DNA of 64,000 bases from a phage. Shown here in pieces: positions 2,322 to 63,835 of this stretch. Numbering within the stretch: the first letter of the stretch is position 1; every line of letters begins with the position of its first letter. The notes beneath the pieces were generated by a model. It did not search any database, had not been told where the DNA came from, and saw only the letters and a list, made by a program, of their open reading frames with translations. A program made the translations under genes and the position numbers. The stretch is from the sequence record PV419677.1; one strand, 5' to 3'.

Positions 2322-2611
2322 AACAAAAAGTCCAGCGTATTAGTTTTCTGTGTACGAGACATACTCGGACGAAGCAGGTTATCATCATAGGCTTCGTTCA
2401 TAATCTTATCAATGATTCCCGCAGGAATGTATCGCGCAAAATTACCTTCAGGAATTCCACGTTCTTCCAACCAGGCAGTCGCAGCTTCCAGATAAGACAT
2501 TTCAGTTGACTCAACCATGGCTTCAATATCAAGCCCGTTTTGCTGCTTACTAATCGCCCCGGAAGGCGATTCAGTTTTCTGTGTATCGAAATTAACTAAA
2601 GAGGACATCAT
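2318..2611 (-). CDS. 33: late transcription co-activator gp33
   Basis: C-terminal ...LLRPSMSRTQKTNTLDFLL as in T4 gp33; start trimmed from track ORF to ATG at 2611 preceded by GGAG. Confidence 0.75.
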   Translation of the reverse strand: MMSSLVNFDTQKTESPSGAISKQQNGLDIEAMVESTEMSYLEAATAWLEERGIPEGNFARYIPAGIIDKIMNEAYDDNLLRPSMSRTQKTNTLDFLL

Positions 2612-2861
2612 AGAGCTCCACAGCTTCGGTTTTTTCATCTTCAAAACGTTCACGAGTGCCTTTATGATACAGACCGAGCTGTGTATTGAACATCTTACCG
2701 TCAACGCCTAATTCAGTTTTTGCCTTATCTTTAAGGTCTTTAATTTCGTCTGCATATGCTTCCATTTTTAATTTGGTATCGGAAGCAGCTTTAATCAGCT
2801 TGGCTAGTTCAGCGCCATGAGTATCAGGACAAAATTCAACTTTCACTTTTTTCTCTTTCAT
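2592..2861 (-). CDS. dsbA: dsDNA-binding protein DsbA
   Basis: 89 aa, same length as T4 DsbA; matches recalled sequence; position between rnh and 33. Confidence 0.8.
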   Translation of the reverse strand: MKEKKVKVEFCPDTHGAELAKLIKAASDTKLKMEAYADEIKDLKDKAKTELGVDGKMFNTQLGLYHKGTRERFEDEKTEAVELYDVLFS

Positions 2862-2869
2862 AATATACC

Positions 2870-3814
2870 TTAATAAAATTCAGCAATATTTGCAGTTAGT
2901 TTAGACAGACCAGACTTAACAAAGTAAGGATAAACTTTACTTTTGGCTGGGATAACGTAGTTATTATATCGTTCTAAGATTGAAGCGGATATTTCCGCTG
3001 GGATAAAGTCCATATCAATCAACAATTGGTTTTCACAGAATCTATTATATTGCTCTTCTGTTAAAAGCGTTTTCAAAACGTCATGGTCGTAATAATTGAG
3101 TGCAATTTGTTCAAGCTCAGCAGCGCGGGTCGGTGGGGTGCGTTCACCTTCTTCACGAGTGTAATAAAAATCACCACGAACCTTGATGCTTGACACGTTA
3201 TCTTTTTTGTCACCTTTAACAACCTTTGTCACGCAATCCATAAGAGCATCGCCTGATTTAGTTTTGACATATTTTTTCTGCATCGGTGACCATTGTTTTA
3301 CCCCAGGGAATTTATGCAACTGGGTAAAGTCGCCATCCGAAGAAACAACCATAACCGGATGTCCGAGACCAGTGAGCAATTTCGTTAATACTGCAATATG
3401 GTCGTCAGCCTCAATTTTATCCATATTCATCACGATGTAAGGCATATGTTTTTCCATTTCATCAATGATGATATGCATGGCAGCGTGTAGACCTTCCCAA
3501 TCAAATTGTGACTCTTCACGAGCTTTTGCACGGTTTTTCTTATAATAATAAGATTTCGTGCGTCGCCAATAACCATTCTTCGAATTATCAACACAAATAA
3601 TTGGGACTGTATAACCGAGCTTTTTAAACTGTACAATGTTTTTTCTGATAGAGTTCAGAACCAGATGTCTGGTCATTGCGGTTGTCACCTTAGGGAAGCC
3701 CGCGTCTTTACCGAATTCCTGGAAGGCTGCTGCCATGATGAGCTGACTAAAATCGAGTAACTGAAAACCATCTTTTTGACGGTCTTCTTCAGGGAGTAAA
3801 AAATCTAAATTCAT
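2870..3814 (-). CDS. rnh: RNase H / 5'-3' exonuclease
   Basis: 314 aa; motifs YYKKNRAKAREES, SSDGDFTQLH as in T4 RNase H (305 aa). Confidence 0.9.
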   Translation of the reverse strand: MNLDFLLPEEDRQKDGFQLLDFSQLIMAAAFQEFGKDAGFPKVTTAMTRHLVLNSIRKNIVQFKKLGYTVPIICVDNSKNGYWRRTKSYYYKKNRAKAREESQFDWEGLHAAMHIIIDEMEKHMPYIVMNMDKIEADDHIAVLTKLLTGLGHPVMVVSSDGDFTQLHKFPGVKQWSPMQKKYVKTKSGDALMDCVTKVVKGDKKDNVSSIKVRGDFYYTREEGERTPPTRAAELEQIALNYYDHDVLKTLLTEEQYNRFCENQLLIDMDFIPAEISASILERYNNYVIPAKSKVYPYFVKSGLSKLTANIAEFY

Positions 3815-3871
3815 ATGAACCTCTGTTCAATTAGTTGACTCGATTATATTAGCATAAAATTTTTAAAGCAA

Positions 3872-3879
3872 TATAAATA
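3872..3879 (+). promoter_or_regulatory. late promoter (TATAAATA) for gene 34
   Basis: exact TATAAATA about 30 nt upstream of gp34 ATG. Confidence 0.6.
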
Positions 3880-3909
3880 CACGTATACCAATCAATAAGG
3901 ATAAAGCAC

Positions 3910-6900
3910 ATGGCCGATATTTTAAAACCAGCATTCAGAGCAACATCCGGTCTCGATGCGGCTGGTGAGAAAGTCATTAATGTCGCGAAAGCTGATTTCT
4001 CAGTTTTGTCAGACGGCGTTAACGTAGACTTCTTTATAGAAGAAAACACAATTCAACAATATGATGCAACACGCGGATATAAGAAAGATTTTGCAGTTAT
4101 CTATGATAACCGTATTTGGGTTTCCCAACGTGAAATCGCAGAACCAGCTGGCCCATTTGTTCAGCAATATTGGACCGCAACCCGTACTGACCCGAAATGG
4201 GAAACTGTTGCATCACCAACTCGTCAGCTTAGCTCCGGGGAATTTATCGCAGTCGACTCAGCTGCAAGCTTTACCACATTTACATTGCCTCCGAACCCGA
4301 CTGATGGTGATACCATCGTTATTAAAGATATCGGCGGTAATACCGGTTATAATGAAATTAAAATCCAGTCAAGCAACGTGCCTGGCCAAGGTAACCAAAA
4401 GATTGTTCGCTTTGGTAATCAGTATTCAGAAGTTTTAATTACCAAACCATTCTCTTATAACATGCTTATCTTTTCAAACCGCTTATGGCAATTTTGGGAA
4501 GCAGGTAACGAAGAACGTGGTATCAGAGTAGAACCGTCGACCGGACGTTTCCATGCACAAGCTGGCGACTTTATTATGCGTCGTTATACAACTGGTGCAC
4601 CGATTACTTTCATTCTTCCTAAGTATGCAAACCAGGGTGATATTGTCAAATCTGTTGATATCGATGGCATGGGGCCAACGTTCCACCTGATGGTTGAAAC
4701 CTTTGACACCAGTTCCAGTCTTGGTAAAGCTGGCCAGCATCAAATGGAATTCCGTACCACAGGTGATGGTTTCTTCGTTTATGATGCTGCCGAAAAACTC
4801 TGGCATGTTTGGGACGGTGATTTTAAAACTCGTCTTCGTGTTATTCGCGACAGCGTTAAACTTTTACCAAACGAAAGTGTCATTGTATTTGGCGAAGATA
4901 ACTCAACTCCGGCAACGATTAATATCGATTTACCAACGGATGTTTTGCAAGGCGATATTGTTAAGATTGCGCTGAACTATCTCCGTAAATCGCAGACTGT
5001 TAATATAAGAGCTGCTGTCGGCGATAAGATTGCAACTGACATTAAATTGCTGCAATTCCCTAAACGTTCCGAGTATCCACCAGATACAACTTGGGTGATG
5101 GTTGATTCATTGACCTTTAATGGCAACATCAGTTATACTCCGGTTATTGAATTATCATATGCAGAAGATGCAGTGTCTGGAACAAGTTATTGGGTTGTCG
5201 CTCAGAACGTCCCGACTGTCGAACGAGTTGACTCATTAAATGATTCCACGCGTACACGTCTTGGTGTTATTGCTCTGGCAAACCAGACTCAGGCAAACGT
5301 TGACCATGAAAATAACCCAGAGAAAGAACTCGCAATTACACCTCAGACTTTAGCCAACCGTGTTGCTAAAGAGAACCAACGAGGCATTGCCAGAATCGCA
5401 ACGACTGCCCAAGTAAATCAGAACAGTGATTTTGCATTTGTTGATGATGTAATTATTTCTCCGAAAAAACTCAATGAACGTACGGCAACAGAAACGAGAC
5501 GTGGGCTCGCAGAACTCGCCACACAGCAAGAAACCGATGCGGGTGTAGATGATACCACAATTATAACTCCAAAGAAACTGCAAGCTCGCCAGGGCTCAGA
5601 ATCGCTATCCGGTATTGTAACTTACGTTTCAACGACTGGTGCAACTCCTGCTGCTTCGCGTGAATTAAATGGTACAAACGTTTATAATAAAAATACGGTT
5701 AATCTGGTTGTTTCTCCGAAAGCTCTTGACCAGTACAAAGCTACTTACACCCAGCAAGGCGCGGTTATTCTTGCGGTTGAAAGTGAAGTAATCGCTGGTA
5801 CTTCTCAATCTGGCTGGGCAAACGCAGTCGTTACTCCAGAAATGTTGCATCGCAAAACTGCTCTTGATTCCCGTATCGGTTTAATCGAGATTGCTACTCA
5901 AGTTGAAACAGATGCAGGAACCGATTATACCAGAGCTGTGACTCCTAAAACGTTAAATGACCGTAAAGCATCAGAAACGTTAACCGGCATAGCCGAGATT
6001 GCTACGCAATCAGAATTTGATACTGGAACTGATGATACTCGTATCTCAACTCCATTAAAAATTAAAAATAGATTTAATAATACTGCTCGTACTTCTGTTA
6101 ATGCATTAAGTGGTTTAGTAGAAACAGGGACGCTCTGGGACCATTATAGCCTGAATATTCTTGAAGCAAATGAGACTCAGCGTGGCACAGCAAGATTAGC
6201 AACTCAGGGTGAAGTCAATACTGGCACTGACGATAAAACAATCGTTACTCCGCTTAAATTGATGTCGAAAAAAGCCACTGAAAACGCCGAAGGTATTGTT
6301 CGCATCGCGACAAACGCAGAAGCAACAGCAGGCACATCAAAAGTCTTGGCCATTAGTCCGTCTGCGCTGAAATATATTGCCCAAACGGAAACAACTTGGG
6401 AAGCATCTGAAACACTGCGTGGATTTGTTCGTTTATCTTCCGGTGCAGCTACTTCGGCCGCAACTACAACGACGGGCGCGGGATTTACATATGAAAATGG
6501 TGTGTATACCCCGGACCCAAGTAAACTGGTTAGCTATGCGAAATCTGGATATGCAGTTTCGCCTTACGAATTAAACCGCGTATTGCAAAACTTCTTACCG
6601 ATAAATGCGATGGCTGTTAATGCTGAAAAACTGGATAACCTCGATTCGACCCAGTTTATTCGTCGTGATATTGCTCAGACTGTTGAAGGTGTATTAACCC
6701 TTACTAAGCAGACAAATATCTCTGCTCCGGTTGTATCGACGAGCACTGCGGTGTTTACTGATGTAACGGCTGGTACTTCGACGTTCGGAACTGTGAATGT
6801 TGTTAATGGAACTAACAAGTGGAAAATCACTGCTCCTTCCGCCGGAACAACAATGACTATTGGCGATACGACTAACGTATTGACATTAAACACCGCCTCG

Positions 6901-12965: not shown

Positions 12966-13000
12966 CAACAAGGGGGAAATGCCCCCTTTGGAGTATAATT

Positions 13001-20138: not shown

Positions 20139-20482
20139 TATTTTTGTAGTTGTTCTAAAATAAATCCACTGGTGTAAAGGCTTGCATTATACAGACGGTC
20201 AAGAGACAACGAATCCAACCCATAAGCTTCACGAATTGCATTCACAACACTTTCATAACTTGTATAATAAACATCGCGATAATCGCGGTCCATAGTCATG
20301 CGGAACTTAATAAATTTATAGAAACCAGTTTCAGGGTCCTGATAGAATGCAAATTCAGCAGACATCAAATTTTTAAGGTTAACAGCTTTTGTGCCACCTG
20401 AATAACTTAAATCAAATGCTTCTGATATGCTAATTTGTTTAAAGAACATAATGTTGCGATTACCAAAAAATACTTTAGACAT
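20138..20482 (-). CDS. hypothetical protein
   Basis: 114 aa; ndd-rIIB variable region. Confidence 0.5.
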   Translation of the reverse strand: MSKVFFGNRNIMFFKQISISEAFDLSYSGGTKAVNLKNLMSAEFAFYQDPETGFYKFIKFRMTMDRDYRDVYYTSYESVVNAIREAYGLDSLSLDRLYNASLYTSGFILEQLQK

Positions 20483-20502
20483 AATATTTTCCTCAATTAA
20501 AT

Positions 20503-20540
20503 TTTATTATCCATGGGAACATTATACTCTGCTCCCAAGA
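20503..20540 (-). promoter_or_regulatory. early promoter cassette (type A)
   Basis: near-identical copy of the 20096 cassette (GTGTACAAACTCTTGGG..GAGTATAATG). Confidence 0.5.
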
Positions 20541-20549
20541 GTTTGTACA

Positions 20550-20795
20550 CTATTCTACATCTACCGCGTCATCCCACAAGTCAACTTCTTCTGATGATTC
20601 CATCAGTTCATCAACTGTGAAGCACTCAGTATTATTTTCAATTGCAAAACGCTTCTGATAAAAAGGATAATCCAAACAGTTTTCAGTGCGCACGGGGCGC
20701 TCGCTGTTATCCATTAAAGGCGAAATGCGAATCAGTTGTTGACCATTACCCAGGACAAATTTTTCACCAACTGCAATGTCTTTAAAAAGTTTCAT
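20550..20795 (-). CDS. hypothetical protein
   Basis: 81 aa; acidic C-terminus. Confidence 0.5.
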   Translation of the reverse strand: MKLFKDIAVGEKFVLGNGQQLIRISPLMDNSERPVRTENCLDYPFYQKRFAIENNTECFTVDELMESSEEVDLWDDAVDVE

Positions 20796-20998
20796 TGCTT
20801 AGCTCCATTCCAAATTACATCAACAACAGACTTCAAACCATTATCCTGGATTTGTGTGAACACTTCAGCAGCAATCCAGAGCTGGAAACCAATCATTGCA
20901 ATGGCACCAATGAAAATCAGGATAATCATCGCCACAATAAACTTGAACATAAAGTCAAAGCGACGATTGGATTTCTGAAATTTTGAATTGTAATTCAT
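20792..20998 (-). CDS. hypothetical membrane protein
   Basis: 68 aa from ATG at 20998 (GAGGA Shine-Dalgarno); track start at 21046 is a TTG codon; TM segment FIVAMIILIFIGAIAMIGF. Confidence 0.45.
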   Translation of the reverse strand: MNYNSKFQKSNRRFDFMFKFIVAMIILIFIGAIAMIGFQLWIAAEVFTQIQDNGLKSVVDVIWNGAKQ

Positions 20999-21008
20999 AA
21001 TATTATCC

Positions 21009-21125
21009 TCAAAAGAAATAGTTAAAGTAAACGCGCACATGGTCAATCATAAAAACAATTGGGAAAATGCTCAGAACAACAAACAGTACAAACATGTTCC
21101 AAATGGCTTTAAGTAACTTTTTCAT
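21009..21125 (-). CDS. small hydrophobic protein (38 aa)
   Basis: ATG with GGAG Shine-Dalgarno directly downstream of a promoter cassette; hydrophobic. Confidence 0.35.
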   Translation of the reverse strand: MKKLLKAIWNMFVLFVVLSIFPIVFMIDHVRVYFNYFF

Positions 21126-21132
21126 AATCATC

Positions 21133-21180
21133 TCCAGTAGTTGATAGGTTCATTATACTACAACCACTGGAGATGTACAC
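21133..21180 (-). promoter_or_regulatory. early promoter cassette (type A)
   Basis: GTGTACA-N16-TATAAT followed by leader AUCAACUACUGGAG. Confidence 0.5.
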
Positions 21181-21270
21181 TCTTTTATGCAAGTTTCATT
21201 AATAATAAACTAAAACAAACGCAAATTACTGGGATACACAGCATCCAGATAAGGCACCAGGTTTTGCTGC

Positions 21271-21537
21271 TCAAAATATCACCTCTTTTATTTCAATCAG
21301 ACCTCGGTACAATGCAGTGCGAAGGTCATAAAGAATATCTATGCCATCAACATTATCCAGTTTTCCATCAATAAGCTTTTTTAAATCTTCCTTTGATGCA
21401 ATCAATGGACGAAGAAATTTACAATCAGAAAGAGACAATTCTGTGGTAACATCATCACCATCACCTGACGCATCATACATAGCGGCAACAACCATACCTG
21501 TAACTTTGTGTTTGGCGTAGTATAATTTAATATCCAT
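21271..21537 (-). CDS. hypothetical protein
   Basis: 88 aa from ATG at 21537 with GAGGA Shine-Dalgarno. Confidence 0.45.
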   Translation of the reverse strand: MDIKLYYAKHKVTGMVVAAMYDASGDGDDVTTELSLSDCKFLRPLIASKEDLKKLIDGKLDNVDGIDILYDLRTALYRGLIEIKEVIF

Positions 21538-21547
21538 TTTATTTTCC

Positions 21548-21703
21548 TCATGCATAACGATTGTATGTATTTTTGCGACACGCGTAAAATTGACGCTCAG
21601 TAACTGCAAAACTTTTTCCACGTTGTTGCATTAATTTAAAAAATTCAGTAATATCGCCATTAACTTCAAGGTATAAAGTCATTGCATATTGAGCAGGTTT
21701 CAT
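21548..21703 (-). CDS. hypothetical small protein (51 aa)
   Basis: ATG with GGAGA Shine-Dalgarno just downstream of a type B cassette. Confidence 0.35.
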   Translation of the reverse strand: MKPAQYAMTLYLEVNGDITEFFKLMQQRGKSFAVTERQFYACRKNTYNRYA

Positions 21704-21720
21704 TTTATTCTCCAGTTGTT

Positions 21721-21770
21721 TGGTAACTCAGTATGGAATCATTATACATAGACTCCATACTGATGTACAC
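21721..21770 (-). promoter_or_regulatory. early promoter cassette (type B leader)
   Basis: GTGTACA -35 and TATAAT -10, conserved leader shared with 17481/35596/43795. Confidence 0.5.
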
Positions 21771-21780
21771 TACTTTTTAA

Positions 21781-22056
21781 TTAATTGTGCATTTGTTCTT
21801 TAACTTCTTTATATGCGCCAACTGCATTCACGACCCCAGTAAAATCTGCAGTCCCACGATAGAGATAGAAAGCGATTTCAGTCAGGTGGTAGACTTCAAA
21901 TTCTGAAAGATAAATGATAACGTCATAATAGGCAACTTGTCCCTGGACTTCGTTGAATACTACATCAAAAATTTCATGGGTTGGAAAATTGATGTTGTTG
22001 TTTTTGAGTGCTTGAATAAGAATTTGTTTGATGTTATTAGTAGTAACGTGTTCCAT
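21781..22056 (-). CDS. hypothetical protein
   Basis: 91 aa from ATG at 22056 with GAGGA Shine-Dalgarno. Confidence 0.45.
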   Translation of the reverse strand: MEHVTTNNIKQILIQALKNNNINFPTHEIFDVVFNEVQGQVAYYDVIIYLSEFEVYHLTEIAFYLYRGTADFTGVVNAVGAYKEVKEQMHN

Positions 22057-34824: not shown

Positions 34825-35571
34825 TTAACCTCTAATCAGTTTAAAAATTGACGCGTTCAAAGGCAGACCACGTTTCAGTTTTAATTTACCAATAAAACCA
34901 ATCTTCTCAAAACGCTCAAGACCTTGAATGATTTTATCATAGCAATCAAAAAGCGTTTCAGCATTAGTTAATTTCTTGGTAACTTTCCAGTCATTACCTT
35001 TGAGCAAGACGTTCAATTTAGTAAGCTCATGACCTTCCGCAATACGGGAACCATCAATGCGAGCCTTCAGAGCAACCATTTTTAATTGGTTTTCTTTGGA
35101 CTGCTCTGATTTACTCATTTGAGCATAATGCTTAACGCGATTCTCACGTTTGTGTTGGATGTTCTTGATATGGGTATATGACTTTTTAATCTGTTCCCAT
35201 TTCTCTGCAGACAGATTTAACTTTTCAATCTTCTTGACAGATGGACGAGCAATTTTTACAGCAACATCATCACGACGTTGTTTAAGCTCATCCAGGGACC
35301 AATCAGAACGCATAGTGTTGTATTTCTTTTTAACAGGAATAACATTACCTTTGATATAACCAATGTCATTGTTAAAACGCTCTAATGATAGCTTCTCACC
35401 TTCAATAGAGTTATTAAATGTTTCACCAGAATAAGCACAAACTTTTTGGTCAAGAATGTTAACCAGGTAATTGAAATCCAGGTTAAAGTCCTTGCCACGA
35501 CGTTTAGCAGAAGCTTGAGTGTGTTCCAGGCGACGTTTAACTTTCAGCGTTTTGGTTTTTGATAAAGTCAT
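34825..35571 (-). CDS. hypothetical basic protein (possible Srd by position)
   Basis: 248 aa; lysine-rich; position equals T4 srd; no sequence-level confirmation. Confidence 0.5.
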   Translation of the reverse strand: MTLSKTKTLKVKRRLEHTQASAKRRGKDFNLDFNYLVNILDQKVCAYSGETFNNSIEGEKLSLERFNNDIGYIKGNVIPVKKKYNTMRSDWSLDELKQRRDDVAVKIARPSVKKIEKLNLSAEKWEQIKKSYTHIKNIQHKRENRVKHYAQMSKSEQSKENQLKMVALKARIDGSRIAEGHELTKLNVLLKGNDWKVTKKLTNAETLFDCYDKIIQGLERFEKIGFIGKLKLKRGLPLNASIFKLIRG

Positions 35572-35706: not shown

Positions 35707-36321
35707 TTAGTTCAAAACAGTCAAATGCCAAACAGTATACAGGTTATTCAATGGGTGTGTTTCAATCAAGTCTACGCGGAGCGTAGTCCCAGCGGGAAAC
35801 ATAAACTCATCTTCATCATTAACCAGGTGCAAGTTTGACTTCCTGGTTGCTTCTGGATATGCACCATTGAACTCTTCAGGAGGAGCACCACAAATCATTT
35901 TGAAGATTGCTTCCTGATAGTTATACGCATATGGTGCATTGTTTATGCAGAAAATATTCCTTGTTCCATAGAAACTGTATGATGCGAAATTTCTTGCAAC
36001 CTGCCAGTCCCTGGAAAAACTCATTACACGATTGAATTCAATTGTTGCCCCAACATATCTTAAATCTTCCAGGTATTCCATAGTTTTCTTTGATATACCA
36101 CGGAACAACGCCGCTGGCGGGGCAGTATTCAGATTGTTGCGGATAATCCTGGACAAGTCTTCTTGAATCAGGTCAGGTTTATTTTCCATACACTGCCAGA
36201 GTACTGATTGCTCATTATCTGTATAAAGAGCATCAATCTCCGCTTGACATTGGTTACGAAAAGACTCACTAGAAGCGGCGGTGTCAATAATTCCATTCAA
36301 AACGTCATCAGTGTATAGCAT
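35707..36321 (-). CDS. ADP-ribosyltransferase, ModA/ModB family
   Basis: 204 aa from ATG at 36321; R-S-E triad candidates (LFRG, SFSRD, DEDEF). Confidence 0.6.
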   Translation of the reverse strand: MLYTDDVLNGIIDTAASSESFRNQCQAEIDALYTDNEQSVLWQCMENKPDLIQEDLSRIIRNNLNTAPPAALFRGISKKTMEYLEDLRYVGATIEFNRVMSFSRDWQVARNFASYSFYGTRNIFCINNAPYAYNYQEAIFKMICGAPPEEFNGAYPEATRKSNLHLVNDEDEFMFPAGTTLRVDLIETHPLNNLYTVWHLTVLN

Positions 36322-36382: not shown

Positions 36383-36926
36383 AGTCAAGAACATAATAAT
36401 CATCAATAAATCCAGCATCAACTACCACGAATTTCTGGTCAACTGGAACAAACCATTCAAGCTCGGAATCAATCATGTCCATGTATTCTTCACGCCTTAA
36501 TGTAGCTGCCCGGTCGGAACCAGAAGCTGTATTGAAGAATTCAAGTGGAACATCAAGTGCGATTTTGCGCATCGCATCATGGTAACAAAAAGCTTTGGTC
36601 TGATTCAATCTGACGATAGTCCTAGTCACATATTCCATTGCAGCAAAATCCCTGGCAATACCATAGTCTTCTGTAAAGGAGGTTATCCGTCCAAATTCAA
36701 AAGGTTGCATTGATTCTTTTGCTTCATCTAACAAATCAATCTCTTGCTGGGTTACTCCGCGCCACAAGACTGTATCGGGTATAGACAACCTTGACTTGAT
36801 GATTGAGTTGACATTTGAATGCAAGGTCTTATCAACCTTTGATGTGCGGCATTCAAATAATGAAGCTATCTCCATTTCACTAAATTTTAACTGGTTGGGT
36901 TCGGTATCAGATTTGATGATGTTCAT
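36366..36926 (-). CDS. ADP-ribosyltransferase, ModA/ModB family
   Basis: 186 aa; LWRG, SFTED, ELEWF triad candidates; tandem with second ADP-ribosyltransferase as in T4 modB-modA. Confidence 0.6.
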   Translation of the reverse strand: MNIIKSDTEPNQLKFSEMEIASLFECRTSKVDKTLHSNVNSIIKSRLSIPDTVLWRGVTQQEIDLLDEAKESMQPFEFGRITSFTEDYGIARDFAAMEYVTRTIVRLNQTKAFCYHDAMRKIALDVPLEFFNTASGSDRAATLRREEYMDMIDSELEWFVPVDQKFVVVDAGFIDDYYVLDCVQEQ

Positions 36927-41474: not shown

Positions 41475-41843
41475 TTAACCTCGCTTCATGAAAGCATTAA
41501 AAATCTGGTCATCAATATCAGTAGGCGGTTCTTGAGATTTAACCCAGCCAGCATCCAGAATGTCATTTGCTTCAGTAGATAGCATGACCCCAATTTCAGG
41601 ATTTCCGGTTATCCACGCTGCACAATCGCGTACATTCTTTTTATCAAATGGATAGCCACGAGTATCTTCATAAGGCCCATTCATTACCATAAATGAGCGA
41701 GCCTTTATGATAACGCCATCTTTAACAATAATATAACCAATCGCCTGATTATAACGAGGCTCGCGGAATTCATAATGAGCATTACCATCATTATTTTTAA
41801 CTAATTCAAAATTCAGATAAGACAAATCGCTTTGAATATACAT
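41475..41843 (-). CDS. hypothetical protein (shares C-terminal DDQIFNAFMKR with next ORF)
   Basis: 122 aa. Confidence 0.5.
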   Translation of the reverse strand: MYIQSDLSYLNFELVKNNDGNAHYEFREPRYNQAIGYIIVKDGVIIKARSFMVMNGPYEDTRGYPFDKKNVRDCAAWITGNPEIGVMLSTEANDILDAGWVKSQEPPTDIDDQIFNAFMKRG

Positions 41844-41844
41844 A

Positions 41845-42282
41845 TTAATCTCGCTTCATAAAGGCATTAAAAATTTGGTCGTCAACTGAATATACAGGGG
41901 TTTCCAGAAGTTTCAAAAGACTGTTTTTAATGTACTTACCCGGGATACCCATATTAACAATACTGTCATTCAATTCATTGTTAGGATTGATGTCTTTAAA
42001 TTCAAACCCATCAAATTCAACCTTGTCAGGAATACCATCAGCGAAAAAATAAACCAATTGGTGCATTGTATTGCATGAAAATAATTTAGACTTGACTGCA
42101 ATAAGTTCTTGCCAATGGTTTAATTCTTTGTTAAGAAGCTTATGAGCAAACGTAATTCTATCATCACTATCAACAAGAAAATAACCCAGGTATTGAATTT
42201 CGTCGCTCCAAAACACCCGGTATGCCTGTGCATTTGGATTTTTACAGCGAAGTTTTTTGATAACTAAATTTCTGTTAATCAT
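41845..42282 (-). CDS. hypothetical protein (shares C-terminal DDQIFNAFMKR with previous ORF)
   Basis: 145 aa from ATG at 42282 (AGGTG Shine-Dalgarno) just after sp stop. Confidence 0.5.
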   Translation of the reverse strand: MINRNLVIKKLRCKNPNAQAYRVFWSDEIQYLGYFLVDSDDRITFAHKLLNKELNHWQELIAVKSKLFSCNTMHQLVYFFADGIPDKVEFDGFEFKDINPNNELNDSIVNMGIPGKYIKNSLLKLLETPVYSVDDQIFNAFMKRD

Positions 42283-42283
42283 T

Positions 42284-42577
42284 TTATTCACCTGTAACCC
42301 ATTGAACAATTTTGCTATTGTCAAATGAAGCATCGCAATACAGAACATAGTTATACTGCATAACGTCACCAGAAGTCAATTGGTCAGATACTTCTTTAAC
42401 CATATCAGGGTGGTCACGTTTAGTTATGTTCATGATATCAGCATAAATCTGATGTTCAACATCAGTCTGGTCGGCAGTCATAGACCACTCACAAAGGTCT
42501 TTATCAAGTCCAGCAGTAACTGGAGCTGTACCACATGATGCTACGGTAAGAATTGCCGCGATTAATAACTTTTTCAT
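42284..42577 (-). CDS. sp: Spackle periplasmic protein (superinfection exclusion)
   Basis: 97 aa, same length as T4 Sp; signal peptide; DKDLCEWSMTADQT...VMQYNYVLYCD matches recalled Sp. Confidence 0.85.
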   Translation of the reverse strand: MKKLLIAAILTVASCGTAPVTAGLDKDLCEWSMTADQTDVEHQIYADIMNITKRDHPDMVKEVSDQLTSGDVMQYNYVLYCDASFDNSKIVQWVTGE

Positions 42578-42580
42578 TTC

Positions 42581-42635
42581 AATCTCCTCAGTAGTTGATA
42601 GGGATAATATACAGCATTACCCCTTTGTTGTACAC
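42581..42635 (-). promoter_or_regulatory. early promoter cassette (type A) upstream of sp
   Basis: GTGTACA-N17-TATATT; leader AUCAACUACUGAGGAG. Confidence 0.5.
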
Positions 42636-42874
42636 TATTTTAATGCATCTTCCAGATAAATTTTGCGGAATTTGCGTTTTGTCTGACGAATCTGACGCTT
42701 GGTAGGTTTCACAGGAAATTCGAAGAACTCTACGTATTCTTGTTCATAATCATTGTGGCCGACTGAAAGAACTAGTTCCCAGCTGCTTACGGTGCGTTGG
42801 ATAAACATATTATGCTTACCAAAAGATTTATTCCAAAAAGAACTAGGGGTAGGTTTCATTAATGTGATATTCAT
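42635..42874 (-). CDS. hypothetical protein
   Basis: 79 aa. Confidence 0.45.
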   Translation of the reverse strand: MNITLMKPTPSSFWNKSFGKHNMFIQRTVSSWELVLSVGHNDYEQEYVEFFEFPVKPTKRQIRQTKRKFRKIYLEDALK

Positions 42875-43081
42875 TTAAATTTCCTCAATGCGGCGGGCAT
42901 CATATTCAAAAACTTTATTGTCATTAACAAAGGCTTTAACCAGCGCATTATTCACTTCTGCATACTGCACTGTAACCCATTCAATCATATTTTGGTCACT
43001 AACATCCAGCGCGGTTTCTTTGGTAAACATATTACCATTTTCAAACCAACCAATAAATACTACGTTTTCTAATTTATACAT
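42875..43081 (-). CDS. dmd: Dmd antitoxin (discriminator of mRNA degradation)
   Basis: 68 aa; VVFIGWFENGNMFTKE...QYAEVNNALVKAF matches recalled T4 Dmd (60 aa). Confidence 0.8.
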   Translation of the reverse strand: MYKLENVVFIGWFENGNMFTKETALDVSDQNMIEWVTVQYAEVNNALVKAFVNDNKVFEYDARRIEEI

Positions 43082-43399
43082 TTAGATTTCCTCGCAGAAG
43101 GCCCAGGCAGCGTGATAAACTGTTGCGCCTTTAGTATCATTTAAACAAACCACGTCAACCGGTGCAATCACACGATAAAGACGGGGTTCTCCTCCATATG
43201 AGCGGGCTGCTCTTCCTGCATAGATACGGGCCAAACCAATATCTTCAGTAAAAAACACACGCCCTAAATTTTTCTTGCGCCCAACTTCTGACAGAACACC
43301 AGTTGCATCAGGAGGGCAAAGCATATTTTGGATTCCAGCATTAGAGCTTGAGCCATGATAATAAACTTTGTATTCCGCCTTGCAATCAATAGTTTTCAT
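43082..43399 (-). CDS. hypothetical protein
   Basis: 105 aa; Gly/Arg-rich; no T4 counterpart recalled between dmd and 41. Confidence 0.5.
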   Translation of the reverse strand: MKTIDCKAEYKVYYHGSSSNAGIQNMLCPPDATGVLSEVGRKKNLGRVFFTEDIGLARIYAGRAARSYGGEPRLYRVIAPVDVVCLNDTKGATVYHAAWAFCEEI

Positions 43400-43415
43400 T
43401 TTATTCTCCAGTAGT

Positions 43416-43462
43416 TGATAGAGTCATTATAACATAAGAAAAAGGGGCTGTAAGCCCCTTTG
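43416..43462 (-). promoter_or_regulatory. hairpin plus early promoter
   Basis: AGGGGC-UUACA-GCCCCU hairpin with U-run then TATAAT and AUCAACUACUGGAG leader. Confidence 0.45.
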
Positions 43463-43467
43463 TTCAC

Positions 43468-43770
43468 TTACGCCAACTCATAGTTGTGCATAGTCAGACA
43501 ACGAATTTTCCCAGTAGTTGGGTGCATAACAGTCACACTAATTGTGTAATCATCACACACGTTAACAAAAGGTTCAGCGATAACATATACTGCCCCACCC
43601 GCCAACAGGTATTCACGAAGAGAGCTGCGAACAGATGAAGGTTGAACATCGCTTTTGAGCTTTATTAATTTACCAGTTTGAATGCCTGATGCGATAAGAG
43701 CAGCACAGTTTTCATCACGGCGAGCGAATTGTCCAAAATAGTAACGATTCATGTCGGTTTGATTAAACAT
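43468..43770 (-). CDS. hypothetical protein
   Basis: 100 aa; no T4 counterpart recalled between dmd and 41. Confidence 0.5.
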   Translation of the reverse strand: MFNQTDMNRYYFGQFARRDENCAALIASGIQTGKLIKLKSDVQPSSVRSSLREYLLAGGAVYVIAEPFVNVCDDYTISVTVMHPTTGKIRCLTMHNYELA

Positions 43771-43794: not shown

Positions 43795-43852
43795 TTATTG
43801 TGTAACTCAGTATGGAATCATTATGTCCTAAGACAAGGGGCTTGTACACCCC
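43795..43852 (-). promoter_or_regulatory. early promoter cassette (type B leader)
   Basis: -35 GTGTACA sits in loop of AAGGGG/CCCCUU hairpin. Confidence 0.5.
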
Positions 43853-43866
43853 TTTTTAAAAATATT

Positions 43867-45306
43867 TTAAAATTTCATTTGAGCAGCAAGGTCATCCAGG
43901 TCGCTCCTGTTGACCCTGGTTTGTCGATTCATTTCGGCCTGGCGATTCATCTCACCGGTGGCTTCTTTAACCGTAGGGCCTTGTTTAGGAGCCGAATCAT
44001 CATCAACCTCATACCAGCGCTGATTACCTTTCTTAACACCCATCTTGAATTTATTATAGTAGTTCTTATCACCATAACGAGACTTAAGCTGTTTGATTAA
44101 CTGCAGCCCCATTTGAGCGAATTCTTCGGTCTCAACAACACCCAACATAAAGTCAGCCGTGTGAGCAATACCAAAGGATTCTGCAATGTCAGCCATATCA
44201 ATCTCGGCTGCAACGTTAGCGCCCCTGGTTGTCTGCGCTGCAGTCCACAAGACCACATTTTTCTCAACTGCCAACCCACGAAGTTCTTCTGCAACCATCT
44301 TAATCAGACCGTAACTGTTTTCGGTAAACGTTTTCAGTCTTGAGCTTGCACAGATTGCCAGGTAGTCAACAATAATCACATCCGGTACAAACCCTTGCTT
44401 CAGTTTGTATTCGTTCAGTAATGCACGGAAAGTATCCGCATGAGCACCACCAGTTGGATATTGTTTTATCTTCAGAGTCCCAAGAGTCCCGGAAGCACGC
44501 CATTTTTCCATCTTAGCTTTATATTCTGCCCATGATATATGACCTTCATCAATATCATCCAGAGACACATCCAGCAAGTTGGCATCAATACGTTTGGCAC
44601 ATACTTCTTCGGCCATTTCCATGCTTATATAAAGAACGTTATGACCAGTCTGAAGATAGTCAGCCGCTAACGAACAAAGTCCTAGAGATTTCCCGACGTT
44701 TGTCCCGGCCAGTAAAACGTTCTCTGTACCATACTCAACTCCACCCTTCGTGATTTTATTCAGGATGTTAATGCGGAACGGAACCTTTTTCGATTTGTTC
44801 AGATAAGTCTGGAATCGAGCTTCGTAATCGTTTAACCAGTCATGGCCCAGGGCAGAGTCAAAACAGATAGATAATGCATCACGCATGATATCAGGGATAG
44901 CACCAATATCCGGGATTCGTTTATCACGTTTATCTTTCGGAAGTTCGGCATTGCTCTGGATTTCGATAATCCTGGATGTAGCATTGAACATCGCAGACTT
45001 CTGTACATACTTCTCGGTTTCTCTAACCAACCATTCCTGGTCTTCTGGAGTATCGGCCAAGACTCCTAAGAGTTTCTTGGTGCCTTCATATTCAACTTCA
45101 GAAAGGTCAGAACTGTCGAGCGCGATATCAAGTGCAGTCTTAGTTGGCACCGCCTGATATTCTTTTACGTGTTCGTTAATCGTATTAAAAAGGGTCTTCG
45201 CTGGACCCTTTTCAAAATATGTGCTATTCAGATATGGCCAGACTTTAACAAAATATTCCTTGTTAAAGAGCAGCTGGGATAAAATAGTTTCTACCACTTC
45301 CACCAC
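43867..45306 (-). CDS. 41: replicative DNA helicase gp41
   Basis: 479 aa (T4 475 aa); DnaB-like; Walker A GTNVGKS. Confidence 0.9.
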   Translation of the reverse strand: MVEVVETILSQLLFNKEYFVKVWPYLNSTYFEKGPAKTLFNTINEHVKEYQAVPTKTALDIALDSSDLSEVEYEGTKKLLGVLADTPEDQEWLVRETEKYVQKSAMFNATSRIIEIQSNAELPKDKRDKRIPDIGAIPDIMRDALSICFDSALGHDWLNDYEARFQTYLNKSKKVPFRINILNKITKGGVEYGTENVLLAGTNVGKSLGLCSLAADYLQTGHNVLYISMEMAEEVCAKRIDANLLDVSLDDIDEGHISWAEYKAKMEKWRASGTLGTLKIKQYPTGGAHADTFRALLNEYKLKQGFVPDVIIVDYLAICASSRLKTFTENSYGLIKMVAEELRGLAVEKNVVLWTAAQTTRGANVAAEIDMADIAESFGIAHTADFMLGVVETEEFAQMGLQLIKQLKSRYGDKNYYNKFKMGVKKGNQRWYEVDDDSAPKQGPTVKEATGEMNRQAEMNRQTRVNRSDLDDLAAQMKF

Positions 45307-63450: not shown

Positions 63451-63461
63451 TTTGTTTTCCT

Positions 63462-63512
63462 CATCAGTAGTTGATGGGATAATGATACACCGTTCAAAGG
63501 GGCTTGTACACC
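63462..63512 (-). promoter_or_regulatory. early promoter cassette (type A) with hairpins
   Basis: -35 GTGTACA in loop of AAAGGGG/CCCCUUU hairpin; leader CCUCAUCA-ACUAC-UGAUGGG. Confidence 0.5.
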
Positions 63513-63517
63513 CCTTT

Positions 63518-63835
63518 TTAATCTTCAATTAAGTCCTGGTCATACCCCAGGGATATCAGTTTTGTTTTAAAGGCAGGAATATTTGTCATTTTTTCATCAT
63601 TGACAAAAATCACTGGGTAACGAATGTTAAGGGTAGGATATCCAGCACGCTTAGCCAAAGACACGATTAAAGGTCTGTCATAAGCGATTTCAGAGCCTTG
63701 TTTGTTAAGGACTGAATAGAATGTATAAGGAAGGTTTAAGGAGCCCAGAAGGCTCCTGACGTGCATACAACCAGGGCATCGACCGACTTCTTCGGGGATA
63801 CCATAGATTTCAATCTTAGTCGAGTTTTGGCCCAC
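63518..63835 (-). CDS. glutaredoxin/thioredoxin-like protein (NrdC/NrdH family)
   Basis: 105 aa; CPGC active-site motif near N-terminus; apparent GTG start. Confidence 0.5.
   Translation of the reverse strand: MGQNSTKIEIYGIPEEVGRCPGCMHVRSLLGSLNLPYTFYSVLNKQGSEIAYDRPLIVSLAKRAGYPTLNIRYPVIFVNDEKMTNIPAFKTKLISLGYDQDLIED

Follow-up and report, generated by a model that had tools for sequence, protein, structure and literature searches.

In phage T4, dmd and tifA form an early operon (PMC9391042). Srikant et al. (2022) proposed that they belong to a possible 'anti-TA island', in which dmd is directed against RnlA, tifA (61.4) against ToxN and adfA (61.2) against DarT, and they called other genes of the island 'attractive anti-toxin candidates' (PMC9391042). 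T4-type phages are also known to exchange gene modules by shuffling between promoter/hairpin elements called PeSLs (Arbiol 2010, PMC2839356; Comeau 2014, PMC4122927). In T4, dmd (20371-20553) is immediately next to gene 41 (20612-22039), as the first-pass annotation of the present DNA had stated: the gap is 58 bp long and contains no ORF.

The window analyzed here is the whole 64,000 nt stretch of the T4-like phage record PV419677.1. Its gene 41/dmd junction carries two unrelated additions, both on the minus strand, whose positions and lengths agree with those first annotated. ORF-A (43082..43399, 105 aa, phrog_2110, Shine-Dalgarno GGAG at 43409-43406) encodes a minimal Arr-like protein with a predicted ADP-ribosyltransferase (ART) fold, and ORF-B (43468..43770, 100 aa, phrog_17014 with E 3.4e-69, Shine-Dalgarno AGGA at 43781-43778) is an orphan gene restricted to Gaprivervirus. 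Profile matches confirm the neighbors that had been named. The conserved upstream anchor of the junction is gene 41, which encodes the DnaB-like replicative helicase (43867..45306, minus strand; Pfam DnaB_C; phrog_19, E 9e-125). On the other side are dmd, the antitoxin gene against RnlA/LsoA (42875..43081, minus strand; PF17587, E 1.3e-20; phrog_2102), and Spackle (42284-42577, E 3e-43). The tifA homologue (42635..42874, minus strand; DUF7279, Pfam E 8.6e-20) is contiguous with dmd, and its product is 45% identical to T4 gp61.4 (E 1e-16). The TAA stop codon of ORF-A abuts the ATG of dmd, the gaps between ORF-A, dmd and tifA have zero length, and a single predicted early promoter lies upstream of ORF-A, which would thus head an early operon, ORF-A-dmd-tifA.

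ORF-B is bordered by two PeSL-type cassettes, found by a consensus scan on the minus strand. Cassette 1 (43820..43855) lies between gene 41 and ORF-B. Its hairpin (43835-43854, −14.1 kcal/mol, z −2.3) is directly 3' of the gene 41 stop codon, and its promoter (43848-43820) has a −35 box, TGTACA (43848-43843), in the loop, a 17-nt spacer and a −10 box, CATAAT (43825-43820). Cassette 2 (43426..43461), between ORF-B and ORF-A, has a terminator-like hairpin with a T-run (43441-43461; stem AAAGGGGC/GCCCCTTT, −15 kcal/mol, z −2.9) and a promoter (43454-43426) with the −35 box CTTACA (43454-43449) in the loop, a 17-nt spacer and an extended −10 box, TG-TATAAT (43431-43426). Judging from these signals, cassette 1 probably drives ORF-B, while cassette 2 probably terminates the transcription of ORF-B and drives ORF-A-dmd-tifA. 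The first-pass annotation had placed a terminator/promoter cassette after each ORF; this is correct in plus-strand coordinates, but in the direction of transcription each cassette is upstream of its ORF. The hairpin motif AAGGGG-N5-9-CCCCTT is present in four copies in the window, compared to 0.01 expected (a 400-fold enrichment), and a second copy identical to the hairpin of cassette 1 is found at 63497-63516.

These cassettes are composites of a terminator hairpin and a sigma70-like early promoter whose −35 box is in or at the loop, and they flank orphan ORFs in a hyperplastic region, as PeSLs do. The G+C-rich stem-loop with its T-run comes right after a gene, the promoter overlaps it and has a 17-nt spacer, several copies exist, and indels between close relatives end at the elements. 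They differ from typical PeSLs in being a local variant (stem A3G4-loop-C4T3, −35 box (C/T)(T/G)TACA); the nearest kinds described in PMC4122927 are the nt-1 stem type and the PST/T4 promoter type. The comparison of the junction across related phages, which had been suggested as a check, shows that the indels are bounded by hairpins. In an alignment of four phages, the ORF-B indel spans exactly from hairpin to hairpin, with cassettes 1 and 2 as its left and right boundaries. In DK-13 the order is gene 41 stop codon, one hairpin and ORF-A, ORF-B being absent. SP18 has a further, third cassette, whose breakpoint falls inside the hairpin loop of cassette 1.

By tblastn, ORF-B is found in 22 phage records, all from Gaprivervirus and all at least 94% identical, and it forms a single 90%-identity cluster among 5.8e9 proteins; searches of protein clusters and phage records returned no distant homologues. 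There is no significant match in Pfam, NCBIfam or PADLOC (a match to LmuC, E 0.04, is insignificant), and the AF2 model computed from the single sequence has a pLDDT of 46.7 and gives no usable fold prediction. The gene is nevertheless under selection, with a dN/dS of 0.05-0.17 among Gapriverviruses. ORF-B can be described as a lineage-restricted accessory orphan, predicted to be expressed early, in a cassette bounded by two PeSLs; it would be gained and lost by recombination between these elements. The likeliest guess about its function is that of a host-specific adaptive protein which acts by binding. Ordinary phage mosaicism accounts for its presence, and an orphan cassette shuffled between PeSLs is a better explanation of the gene than a role in counter-defence.

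Of the profile and structure searches that had been recommended, the profile searches yielded nothing usable for ORF-B, and both kinds led to Arr and the ART fold for ORF-A. ORF-A alone has no match in Pfam (E ≤ 1), NCBIfam or PADLOC, and none to anti-defence proteins; the profile of its narrow family has none among PDB sequences. A broadened profile, which combines this narrow family with domains from polyvalent proteins, matches only Arr-ms (2HW2/9IAF, E 1.2e-3) and Arr-2 (9IBA, E 0.047) among PDB sequences, and its hhalign comparison with the Arr family alignment gives 96.2% and E 2.6e-9. Moreover, the ORF-A-like stretch of 12 of the 36 multidomain relatives scanned exceeds the 25-bit gathering cutoff of PF12120 (Arr-ms) with 25.5-35.2 bits, over positions 1-67 of the 99 of the model only. 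Since ORF-A itself and its narrow profile match nothing, the link to Arr consists of transitive profile evidence and of the fold. On these grounds ORF-A appears to be homologous to the N-terminal two thirds of Arr.

The AF2 model of ORF-A (pLDDT 87.2, pTM 0.78) has the split β-sheet of the ART fold and a single long helix (residues 54-68). In a Foldseek search of the PDB with this model, Arr ranks first and KptA third, and a match in BFVD is a 94-aa phage protein recorded as 'Rifampin ADP-ribosyl transferase' (E 1.7e-7, TM 0.73-0.81). The NAD+ lobe of Tpt1/KptA is the nearest structure to the modeled ORF-A; the superposition covers 75 residues, of this lobe only. Within its clade, ORF-A is the smallest protein with an ART fold. 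The description of the protein as Gly/Arg-rich in the first-pass annotation was overstated (Gly 9.5%, Arg 6.7%), and the strings that had been quoted for it, YHGSSS and ARIYAGRAA, are in fact the conserved NAD-binding strand and helix of the fold.

Nine residues do not vary across 45 diverse sequences: H15, G16, E38, F49, A57, Y60, A61, G70 and G91. As every one of the 45 has S or T at position 17, the H-G-[ST] NAD motif of strand 1 is kept. The alignments to Arr pair H15 with Arr H19 and F49 with Arr Y49; the strand 2 position is thus aromatic, neither Tyr nor His. AcrIF11, an active phage ART, also has a Phe (Phe26) in place of the Tyr (PMC8120803). In the H-Y-[EDQ] / H-H-h clade of ARTs, the catalytic residue of strand 5 is Glu, Asp or Gln, with a hydrophobic residue there in Tpt1. 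A conserved catalytic acid near the position of Arr Asp84, on strand 5, was not found: positions 84-90 hold no invariant acid in the 45 sequences, position 87 being N in 27, S in 8, Q in 4, R in 3, H in 2 and D in 1, and position 88 being Asp in 20. The only invariant acid of the family is E38, in the loop between strands 1 and 2. The alignments to Arr end at residue 84 of ORF-A, just short of Arr Asp84. Given the missing invariant acid and the end of the alignment there, catalysis by ORF-A is not assured. Conservation is also complete or almost complete at R41, K42/K43 and R63, and the basic loop GRKKN is invariant.

ORF-A is present in 610 phage records, from Straboviridae that infect Escherichia, Klebsiella, Acinetobacter, Aeromonas, Vibrio and other hosts, and the full profile search gives 246 relatives. 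ORF-A-like domains are also embedded in giant phage "polyvalent" proteins; according to a published proposal, such proteins enter the cell together with the DNA and act as infection begins (PMC5512222). Among the 36 multidomain architectures scanned are a portal protein followed by the ORF-A-like domain and a 2H/Acb1-like domain, and a tape-measure protein of 3924 aa; other partners are ART-PolyVal, NUDIX, Toprim, GNAT, ParB, CHAP and LPD23. No match was obtained by tblastn against 72,556 plasmids, and the family looks phage-restricted in the collections searched. The gene is absent from the T4 junction (T4 was checked from 9.5 to 26.5 kb), and no T4-named protein is found among the homologues. 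This absence probably explains why no experiment on any member of the family was found in the literature, where the papers on 'ORF040c' concern ORFs of other phages. In the VR7 record, the homologue of ORF-A is annotated as resembling RB69 ORF040c. A screen of early genes in AV110 covered only genes with T4 homologues.

Only in some Tevenvirinae is ORF-A linked to dmd. No Dmd domain is found in the neighbors of the ORF-A homologues of Matisse, Konradin and Aeromonas phage 65, outside the Tevenvirinae of E. coli, and in Vibrio 501E54-1 the neighbors are not annotated as dmd. The idea that ORF-A always travels with dmd is therefore rejected, and guilt by association with dmd is limited to some lineages, because homologues elsewhere are not beside it. 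The two genes also evolve differently. Among four Gapriverviruses, ORF-A has 0 nonsynonymous substitutions versus 5-16 synonymous ones, and its identity is at least 55-60% between phages of different bacterial orders, whereas dmd already has a dN of 0.25 between the window and VR7. ORF-A is thus far more conserved than toxin-binding inhibitors like Dmd, which points to a conserved substrate and not to a fast-evolving toxin.

The first-pass annotation had suggested that both ORFs may belong to the counter-defence neighborhood of Dmd and Spackle. This is plausible for ORF-A as a candidate: the island has been described in print, ORF-A is contiguous with dmd and tifA, and its superfamily is used in phage-host conflict. 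The suggestion is weakened by the lineage-limited linkage to dmd and by a conservation unlike that of inhibitors. We consider it probable that ORF-A is an early NAD+-dependent effector which transfers ADP-ribose, ORF-B being a PeSL-shuffled accessory orphan. Transcription of ORF-A, the first cistron of its operon, would start right after infection at the early promoter in the 43426-43461 cassette. The protein would bind NAD+ via the invariant H15-G16-S/T17 strand, F49 and Y60 would stack on the nicotinamide and the ribose, and the ADP-ribose would go to an acceptor of the infected cell that is highly conserved, for host take-over or for counter-defence. In view of the lack of a conserved Asp84-type acid, of the invariant basic GRKKN loop and of Tpt1 as the best structural match, we give a phosphate or hydroxyl acceptor on a nucleic acid or a small molecule roughly the same likelihood as a protein side chain. 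The window contains two Mod-like genes. ORF-A therefore comes in addition to these ARTs, its interpretation as a replacement of ModA or ModB is rejected, and a redundant role in host take-over is not obviously needed. A bolder proposal, which we judge rather improbable, is that ORF-A founds a class of counter-defence enzymes, as a stripped-down Arr/Tpt1-like NAD+ transferase and the enzymatic third member of the dmd-tifA operon. Its ADP-ribosylation might disable a conserved effector of host immunity, e.g., an RNase toxin or the RNA ends that this toxin produces, or ORF-A might heal or cap the cleaved RNA; the same module would be injected by many unrelated phages within polyvalent virion proteins.

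Other explanations must be compared with the transferase of a conserved acceptor. ORF-A could work as the NAD+ lobe of Tpt1/KptA, placing ADP-ribose onto a terminal or 2'-phosphate of RNA in a reaction of end healing or capping; as an enzymatic partner of Dmd and TifA, it would repair or protect the transcripts and tRNAs cut by host RNase toxins such as RnlA/LsoA, ToxN or anticodon nucleases. A phosphate nucleophile tolerates the missing acid, as in the H-H-h clade of Tpt1 (PMC8120803; PMC9503650), and the conserved basic residues (R41, K42/K43, R63) as well as the contiguity with the genes of two inhibitors of RNase toxins, in what is probably one operon, are in favor of an RNA substrate. Some polyvalent relatives pair the domain with a 2H phosphoesterase (P0154) or with NUDIX (P0157, P0201), which are described partners in KptA-based RNA repair (PMC9503650), and in Klebsiella phage Matisse the homologue and RNA ligase 2 belong to one gene string. 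However, these 2H and NUDIX associations represent just 3 of the 36 architectures, the sequence homology is to Arr and not to Tpt1, and ORF-A is devoid of the N-terminal RNA-binding lobe that carries most of the R-H-R-R catalytic tetrad of Tpt1. The basic loop, which aligns with the NAD-binding S-N-F/E-x-G-R region of Arr, may bind the phosphates of NAD+ and not the substrate. To our knowledge, the Pnkp/Rnl repair of T4 type makes no 2'-phosphate junctions, which also counts against this role. Altogether RNA end modification is a possible but unlikely activity of ORF-A. It is a little more doubtful still that the protein is catalytically inert, i.e., a degenerate ART fold which acts by binding, either as a sponge that soaks up NAD+, ADP-ribose or immune signals related to them, or as a decoy or inhibitor of a host ART toxin, of its antitoxin or of another host protein. 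Inertness would account for the lack of an invariant acid at the canonical third catalytic position, for the Phe in place of Arr Y49, and for the tiny size of a protein (105 aa) which has no recognizable substrate-binding extension; Dmd, TifA and AdfA of the same island indeed act by binding (PMC9391042, PMC11825919). On the contrary, the strict invariance of the NAD-contacting H-G-S/T, F49 and Y60 over a very wide divergence and the recurrence of the domain beside other enzymes in polyvalent proteins fit an enzyme better, and AcrIF11 is active despite its Phe (PMC8120803). Variability is also the rule in binders of fast-evolving host proteins, whereas few accessory genes here are as conserved as ORF-A.

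Considering that Arr is the only homologue detectable by sequence, that some GenBank records give its name to a homologue, and that Aravind and colleagues discussed whether phage ARTs of the Arr family might detoxify diffusible compounds (PMC9503650), ORF-A might be a genuine Arr, which would inactivate rifamycin-type or similar inhibitors and protect the host RNA polymerase. Yet the two helices which wall the rifampicin cleft are not both present, ORF-A ends at about residue 110 of Arr, RIF site 2 (126-133) is missing, and an alignment of RIF site 1 (87-95) is not possible (sites as in PMC8492726 and PMC8120803). Y49 and D84, which are 100% conserved in functional Arrs (PMC8492726), are not kept, and even the best relatives match the Pfam model over its first two thirds only. 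Enteric, Acinetobacter, Aeromonas and Vibrio hosts would not be rifamycin-rich niches either. The inactivation of rifampicin is disfavored, and we regard a genuine Arr as very improbable. The least credible explanation, that both ORFs are chance frames or decaying remnants in an intergenic spacer, could invoke their shortness, the absence of Pfam matches, the hyperplastic region and the confinement of ORF-B homologues to one genus. It conflicts with the purifying selection on both genes, with the Shine-Dalgarno sequence and the predicted early promoter that each of them has, and with the conservation of ORF-A in hundreds of records and its confident fold. The substitution pattern rejects the non-coding status of ORF-A and ORF-B, and the chance-frame explanation is refuted for ORF-A.

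Few accessory genes of T4-like phages are conserved as strongly as ORF-A, which heads a predicted operon whose two other genes encode proven inhibitors of host RNase toxins and is a good candidate for experiments. With its acceptor identified, phage-host biology would gain a new ADP-ribosylation reaction, and the presence of enzymatic counter-defences in the 'anti-TA island' besides stoichiometric ones would be put to the test. Some database records of the family are labeled 'rifampin ADP-ribosyl transferase' or even 'clamp loader subunit', and the present analysis corrects these labels. In therapeutic phages, the former label might wrongly suggest a gene for antibiotic resistance, whereas the parts that bind rifampicin are missing. 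ORF-B and its two hairpins are an example, resolved to the base pair, of PeSL-mediated cassette exchange in Gaprivervirus.

Compared to known ARTs, ORF-A is like Arr (PF12120; PDB 2HW2, 9IAF, 9IBA) in being a very small single-domain protein, and the two have in common the H-G-T/S strand, the E-x-G-R loop, the V-[YF]-[FI]-T strand, the helix that follows it and the V-x-P-x-G strand. Arr is longer (143 aa versus 105 aa), and the alignment spans its residues 13-82 only. In the H19-Y49-D84 triad of Arr, the His is kept in ORF-A, Y49 becomes F49 and D84 has no conserved equivalent. ORF-A lacks the second helix and the C-terminal helix, neither rifampicin-binding site is recognizable, and its GRKKN loop is strongly basic and four residues longer than that of Arr. 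Arr is a resistance cassette, whereas ORF-A is phage-borne and predicted to be expressed early. Tpt1/KptA (PDB 9LD3, 7KW9) is a two-lobe protein, and ORF-A is a single domain without the RNA-binding lobe and the R-H-R-R tetrad; no Tpt1 sequence matches the family profile in the PDB search at E ≤ 10. AcrIF11 (PDB 6KYF) has no detectable sequence homology with ORF-A and requires Asp115, which has no conserved equivalent there. Its target, Cas8f, is a defence protein, whereas the extreme conservation of ORF-A suggests a conserved target. Alt, ModA and ModB of T4 and ART-PolyVal are phage ARTs whose action falls in the first moments of infection, and the ORF-A-like domain is repeatedly fused to ART-PolyVal in the same polypeptides. 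These enzymes are of the R-S-E (cholera-toxin) type and have about 200 aa or more, whereas ORF-A is of the H type and half that size.

The phage is T4-like and belongs to the genus Gaprivervirus; its nearest record at the junction between gene 41 and dmd is that of Escherichia phage MN01 (97% identity). All the genes around this junction are on the minus strand, in the transcription order gene 41 helicase (45306-43867), ORF-B (43770-43468, 100 aa), ORF-A (43399-43082, 105 aa), dmd (43081-42875, Pfam Dmd, E 1.3e-20), a TifA/gp61.4 homologue (42874-42635, DUF7279, 45% identity to T4 gp61.4) and spackle (sp, 42577-42284, Pfam T4_Spackle, E 3e-43). In T4, dmd and gene 41 are separated by 58 bp with no gene in the gap; the first-pass annotation was therefore correct in describing two extra ORFs here. 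Cassette exchange has a hot spot between gene 41 and sp, with optional cassettes in SP18, UPEC01 and VR7. In VR7, a 110-aa ORF (2366-2698 of the comparison locus) separates dmd from the 61.4 homologue.

ORF-A and ORF-B are genuine genes. Across the four Gapriverviruses compared, ORF-A shows extreme purifying selection (0 nonsynonymous versus 5-16 synonymous differences), and the dN/dS of ORF-B is 0.05-0.17. Their Shine-Dalgarno sequences are GGAG (43409-43406, minus) and AGGA (43781-43778, minus), respectively. Each ORF is accompanied by a composite element in which a G+C-rich hairpin with a T-run is combined with a sigma70-like early promoter, the -35 being placed within the hairpin loop. In plus-strand coordinates the element follows the ORF, as first annotated; in the direction of transcription it lies upstream. 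The cassette before ORF-A (43461-43426, minus; -15 kcal/mol) has CTTACA, a 17-nt spacer and TG-TATAAT; the one before ORF-B (43855-43820, minus; -14.1 kcal/mol) has TGTACA, a 17-nt spacer and CATAAT. The stop codon of ORF-A abuts the dmd start, and dmd in turn abuts the tifA homologue, an arrangement from which we infer co-transcription: the promoter at 43454-43426 is most likely that of an early operon of three genes, ORF-A-dmd-tifA. In T4, dmd and tifA are known to form an early operon (PMC9391042).

ORF-B forms a single 90%-identity cluster among 5.8 billion proteins, and is found in only 22 phage records, all of Gaprivervirus-type Escherichia or Shigella phages (identity at least 94%). An AF2 model made from the single sequence could not be used (pLDDT 46.7). 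The comparison across relatives proposed at first pass (window, MN01, DK-13 and SP18) shows an indel bounded exactly by two hairpins: in DK-13, the gene 41 stop codon is followed by one hairpin and then directly by ORF-A, while the window and MN01 have an additional segment, running from the hairpin after gene 41 to that before ORF-A, whose sole content is ORF-B. In SP18 and UPEC01, a third cassette lies between gene 41 and ORF-B; it brings a terminator and a promoter of its own and an 83-aa ORF labelled "goF mRNA metabolism modulator" (2408-2656 of the SP18 locus), and its right-hand junction is inside the TGTACA loop of the hairpin after gene 41. Four copies of the motif AAGGGG-N5-9-CCCCTT are present in the window, versus 0.01 expected. 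Promoter-early stem-loops (PeSLs) are known to shuffle orphan ORFs as modules within the hyperplastic regions of T4-type phages (PMC2839356, PMC4122927). The hairpin-bounded indels and the repeated motif match this behaviour, which makes ORF-B an ordinary accessory orphan carried by PeSLs; with its cassettes it is a textbook PeSL indel. That it encodes a host-specific binding protein is a low-confidence guess.

One of the four motif copies, at 63497-63516 (context 63452-63537), is a hairpin identical to that after gene 41, AAGGGGCTTGTACACCCCTT, with its own -10-like box. It is located just downstream of an nrdC/glutaredoxin-like ORF (63518-63835, minus) and precedes several small ORFs, and is a further PeSL-type element of the same genome. 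A weaker relative is at 12970-12988. The leaders of sp (42589-42611) and ORF-A (43409-43431) have in common a 23-nt segment, CAGTAGTTGATAG..ATA (83% identity), and a (T/C)(G/T)TACA-N17 promoter, and the sp promoter context, TAAAATAGTGTACAA, recurs at the SP18 cassette junction; promoter-leader sequences may therefore be recombination substrates besides the hairpins. The adjacent minus-strand ORFs 41475-41843 (122 aa) and 41845-42369 (174 aa) have only a C-terminal tail in common, DDQIFNAFMKR(G/D), also found in T4 gp61.2 (AdfA, the anti-DarT factor). Their 3' ends contain a 45-nt direct repeat (89% identical), which suggests N-terminal domain swapping onto a constant tail, or gene-end recombination.

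The two ORFs had been proposed to belong to a counter-defence neighbourhood. Srikant et al. did propose that dmd, tifA and adfA form a possible anti-TA island whose other genes are candidates (PMC9391042). This argument is real but lineage-limited: in Slopekvirus, Lazarusvirus, Ishigurovirus and one Vibrio phage, the ORF-A homologues are elsewhere, with no adjoining Dmd-like gene. Moreover, the conservation of ORF-A fits an enzyme with a conserved substrate, unlike that of Dmd, and ORF-B is an ordinary orphan. The proposal is only partly sustained.

Direct searches with ORF-A in Pfam, NCBIfam and PADLOC gave no match, and PHROGs assigns it to phrog_2110, "unknown function". It has 121 close homologues (52-99% identity, best local alignment) in T4-like phages of many hosts, a few of which are named "ADP-ribosyl transferase". 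The AF2 model, for which 37 of them served as input, has high confidence (pLDDT 87.2, pTM 0.78) and a beta-beta-alpha-beta4 topology. Foldseek ranked Arr, the rifampicin ADP-ribosyltransferase (ART), first, and a 94-aa phage protein labelled rifampin ADP-ribosyltransferase was matched in BFVD (E 1.7e-7). Searched exhaustively with the profile, 1.84 billion representatives yielded 246 relatives; in 12 of the 36 scanned, the ORF-A-like stretch scores above the cut-off that Pfam sets for PF12120 (Arr-ms). When the polyvalent-protein domains were included, the profile matched, among all PDB sequences, only Arr-ms (E 1.2e-3) and Arr-2 (E 0.047), and hhalign of the ORF-A profile against the Arr family alignment gave 96.2% probability (E 2.6e-9). 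The profile and structure searches envisaged at first pass thus reveal an ART fold and establish, at the sequence level, homology to Arr, restricted to residues 8-84 of ORF-A and 13-82 of Arr.

Many of the 246 relatives are domains within large phage proteins, some virion-associated: one architecture joins a lambda-type portal, an ORF-A-like domain and a 2H/Acb1-like domain, and another example is a 3924-aa tape-measure protein. Other partners are ART-PolyVal, NUDIX, Toprim, GNAT, ParB, CHAP, LPD23 and DUF7178. This is the architecture of "polyvalent proteins", which have been proposed to enter the cell together with the DNA and to function from the start of infection (PMC5512222).

Two Mod-like (T4 ModA/ModB-type) R-S-E ART genes, detected by tblastn with T4 proteins (~35788-36276 and ~36417-36887, minus), adjoin srd (34828-35571). 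The window therefore encodes at least three ARTs, and ORF-A is an additional one, presumably with a different target.

No characterisation of the ORF-A family was found in the literature search, and its public annotation is inconsistent. The UPEC01 homologue (1983-2300 of its locus) is labelled "clamp loaded subunit DNA polymerase", and the features under the UPEC03 match include one with the comparable name "clamp loader subunit"; both are clearly wrong. Konradin, Abraxas, Phynn and 501E54-1 have "putative ADP-ribosyl transferase", Klebsiella phage KLB25 "rifampin ADP-ribosyl transferase", and most other records "hypothetical protein". The rifampin label is misleading in the safety screening of therapeutic phages, since the parts that bind rifampicin are missing. 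ORF-A is a minimal Arr-like phage ART which merits an experiment.

On the most likely reading, ORF-A would bind NAD+ and, early in infection, pass ADP-ribose to a conserved acceptor. The lack of a conserved acid, the basic GRKKN loop and the best structural match, Tpt1, an RNA 2'-phosphotransferase (Tpt1/KptA), put a phosphate or hydroxyl acceptor (a nucleic-acid end or a small molecule) roughly on a par with a protein side chain. The GRKKN loop, which aligns with the NAD-binding loop of Arr, may equally bind the NAD+ diphosphate. A Tpt1-like reaction on RNA ends would suit an operon directed against RNase toxins, as well as the occasional 2H and NUDIX partners (PMC9503650), but ORF-A lacks the RNA lobe and the tetrad of Tpt1. 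The ORF-A homologue of Klebsiella phage Matisse (Slopekvirus; 2501-5219 of the locus) is the first in a run of small genes on one strand, the last of which are an Srd-like "decoy of host sigma70" and RNA ligase 2 (RnlB); this hints weakly at a connection with RNA repair or with the take-over of transcription.

In a set of 45 diverse sequences, H15, G16, E38, F49, A57, Y60, A61, G70 and G91 are invariant, and P29, P30, R41, K43, N44, L45, V48, T51, I59, R63, A64, G69 and V94 nearly so. The NAD+ pocket is homologous to that of Arr and its contact residues are invariant; a non-catalytic binder is less likely than an active ART. A true rifamycin-modifying enzyme is also less likely, despite the homology: no alignment extends to Arr Asp84, there is no invariant acid at ORF-A 84-90, RIF-binding site 1 of Arr (87-95) is not alignable, and ORF-A ends near Arr residue 110, so that it has neither the second helix nor RIF-binding site 2 (126-133) (sites and cleft helix as defined in PMC8492726 and PMC8120803). 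With this truncated end, a Phe for Tyr49 and no conserved acid, ORF-A is therefore not classed as an Arr by function. H15-G16-S/T17 is the counterpart of the NAD+ motif H19-G-T of Arr, and F49, at the position of Arr Y49, is matched by a Phe in AcrIF11, an active phage ART (PMC8120803). Within the Arr/Tpt1 clade, ORF-A is a truncated variant of the H-F-x type.
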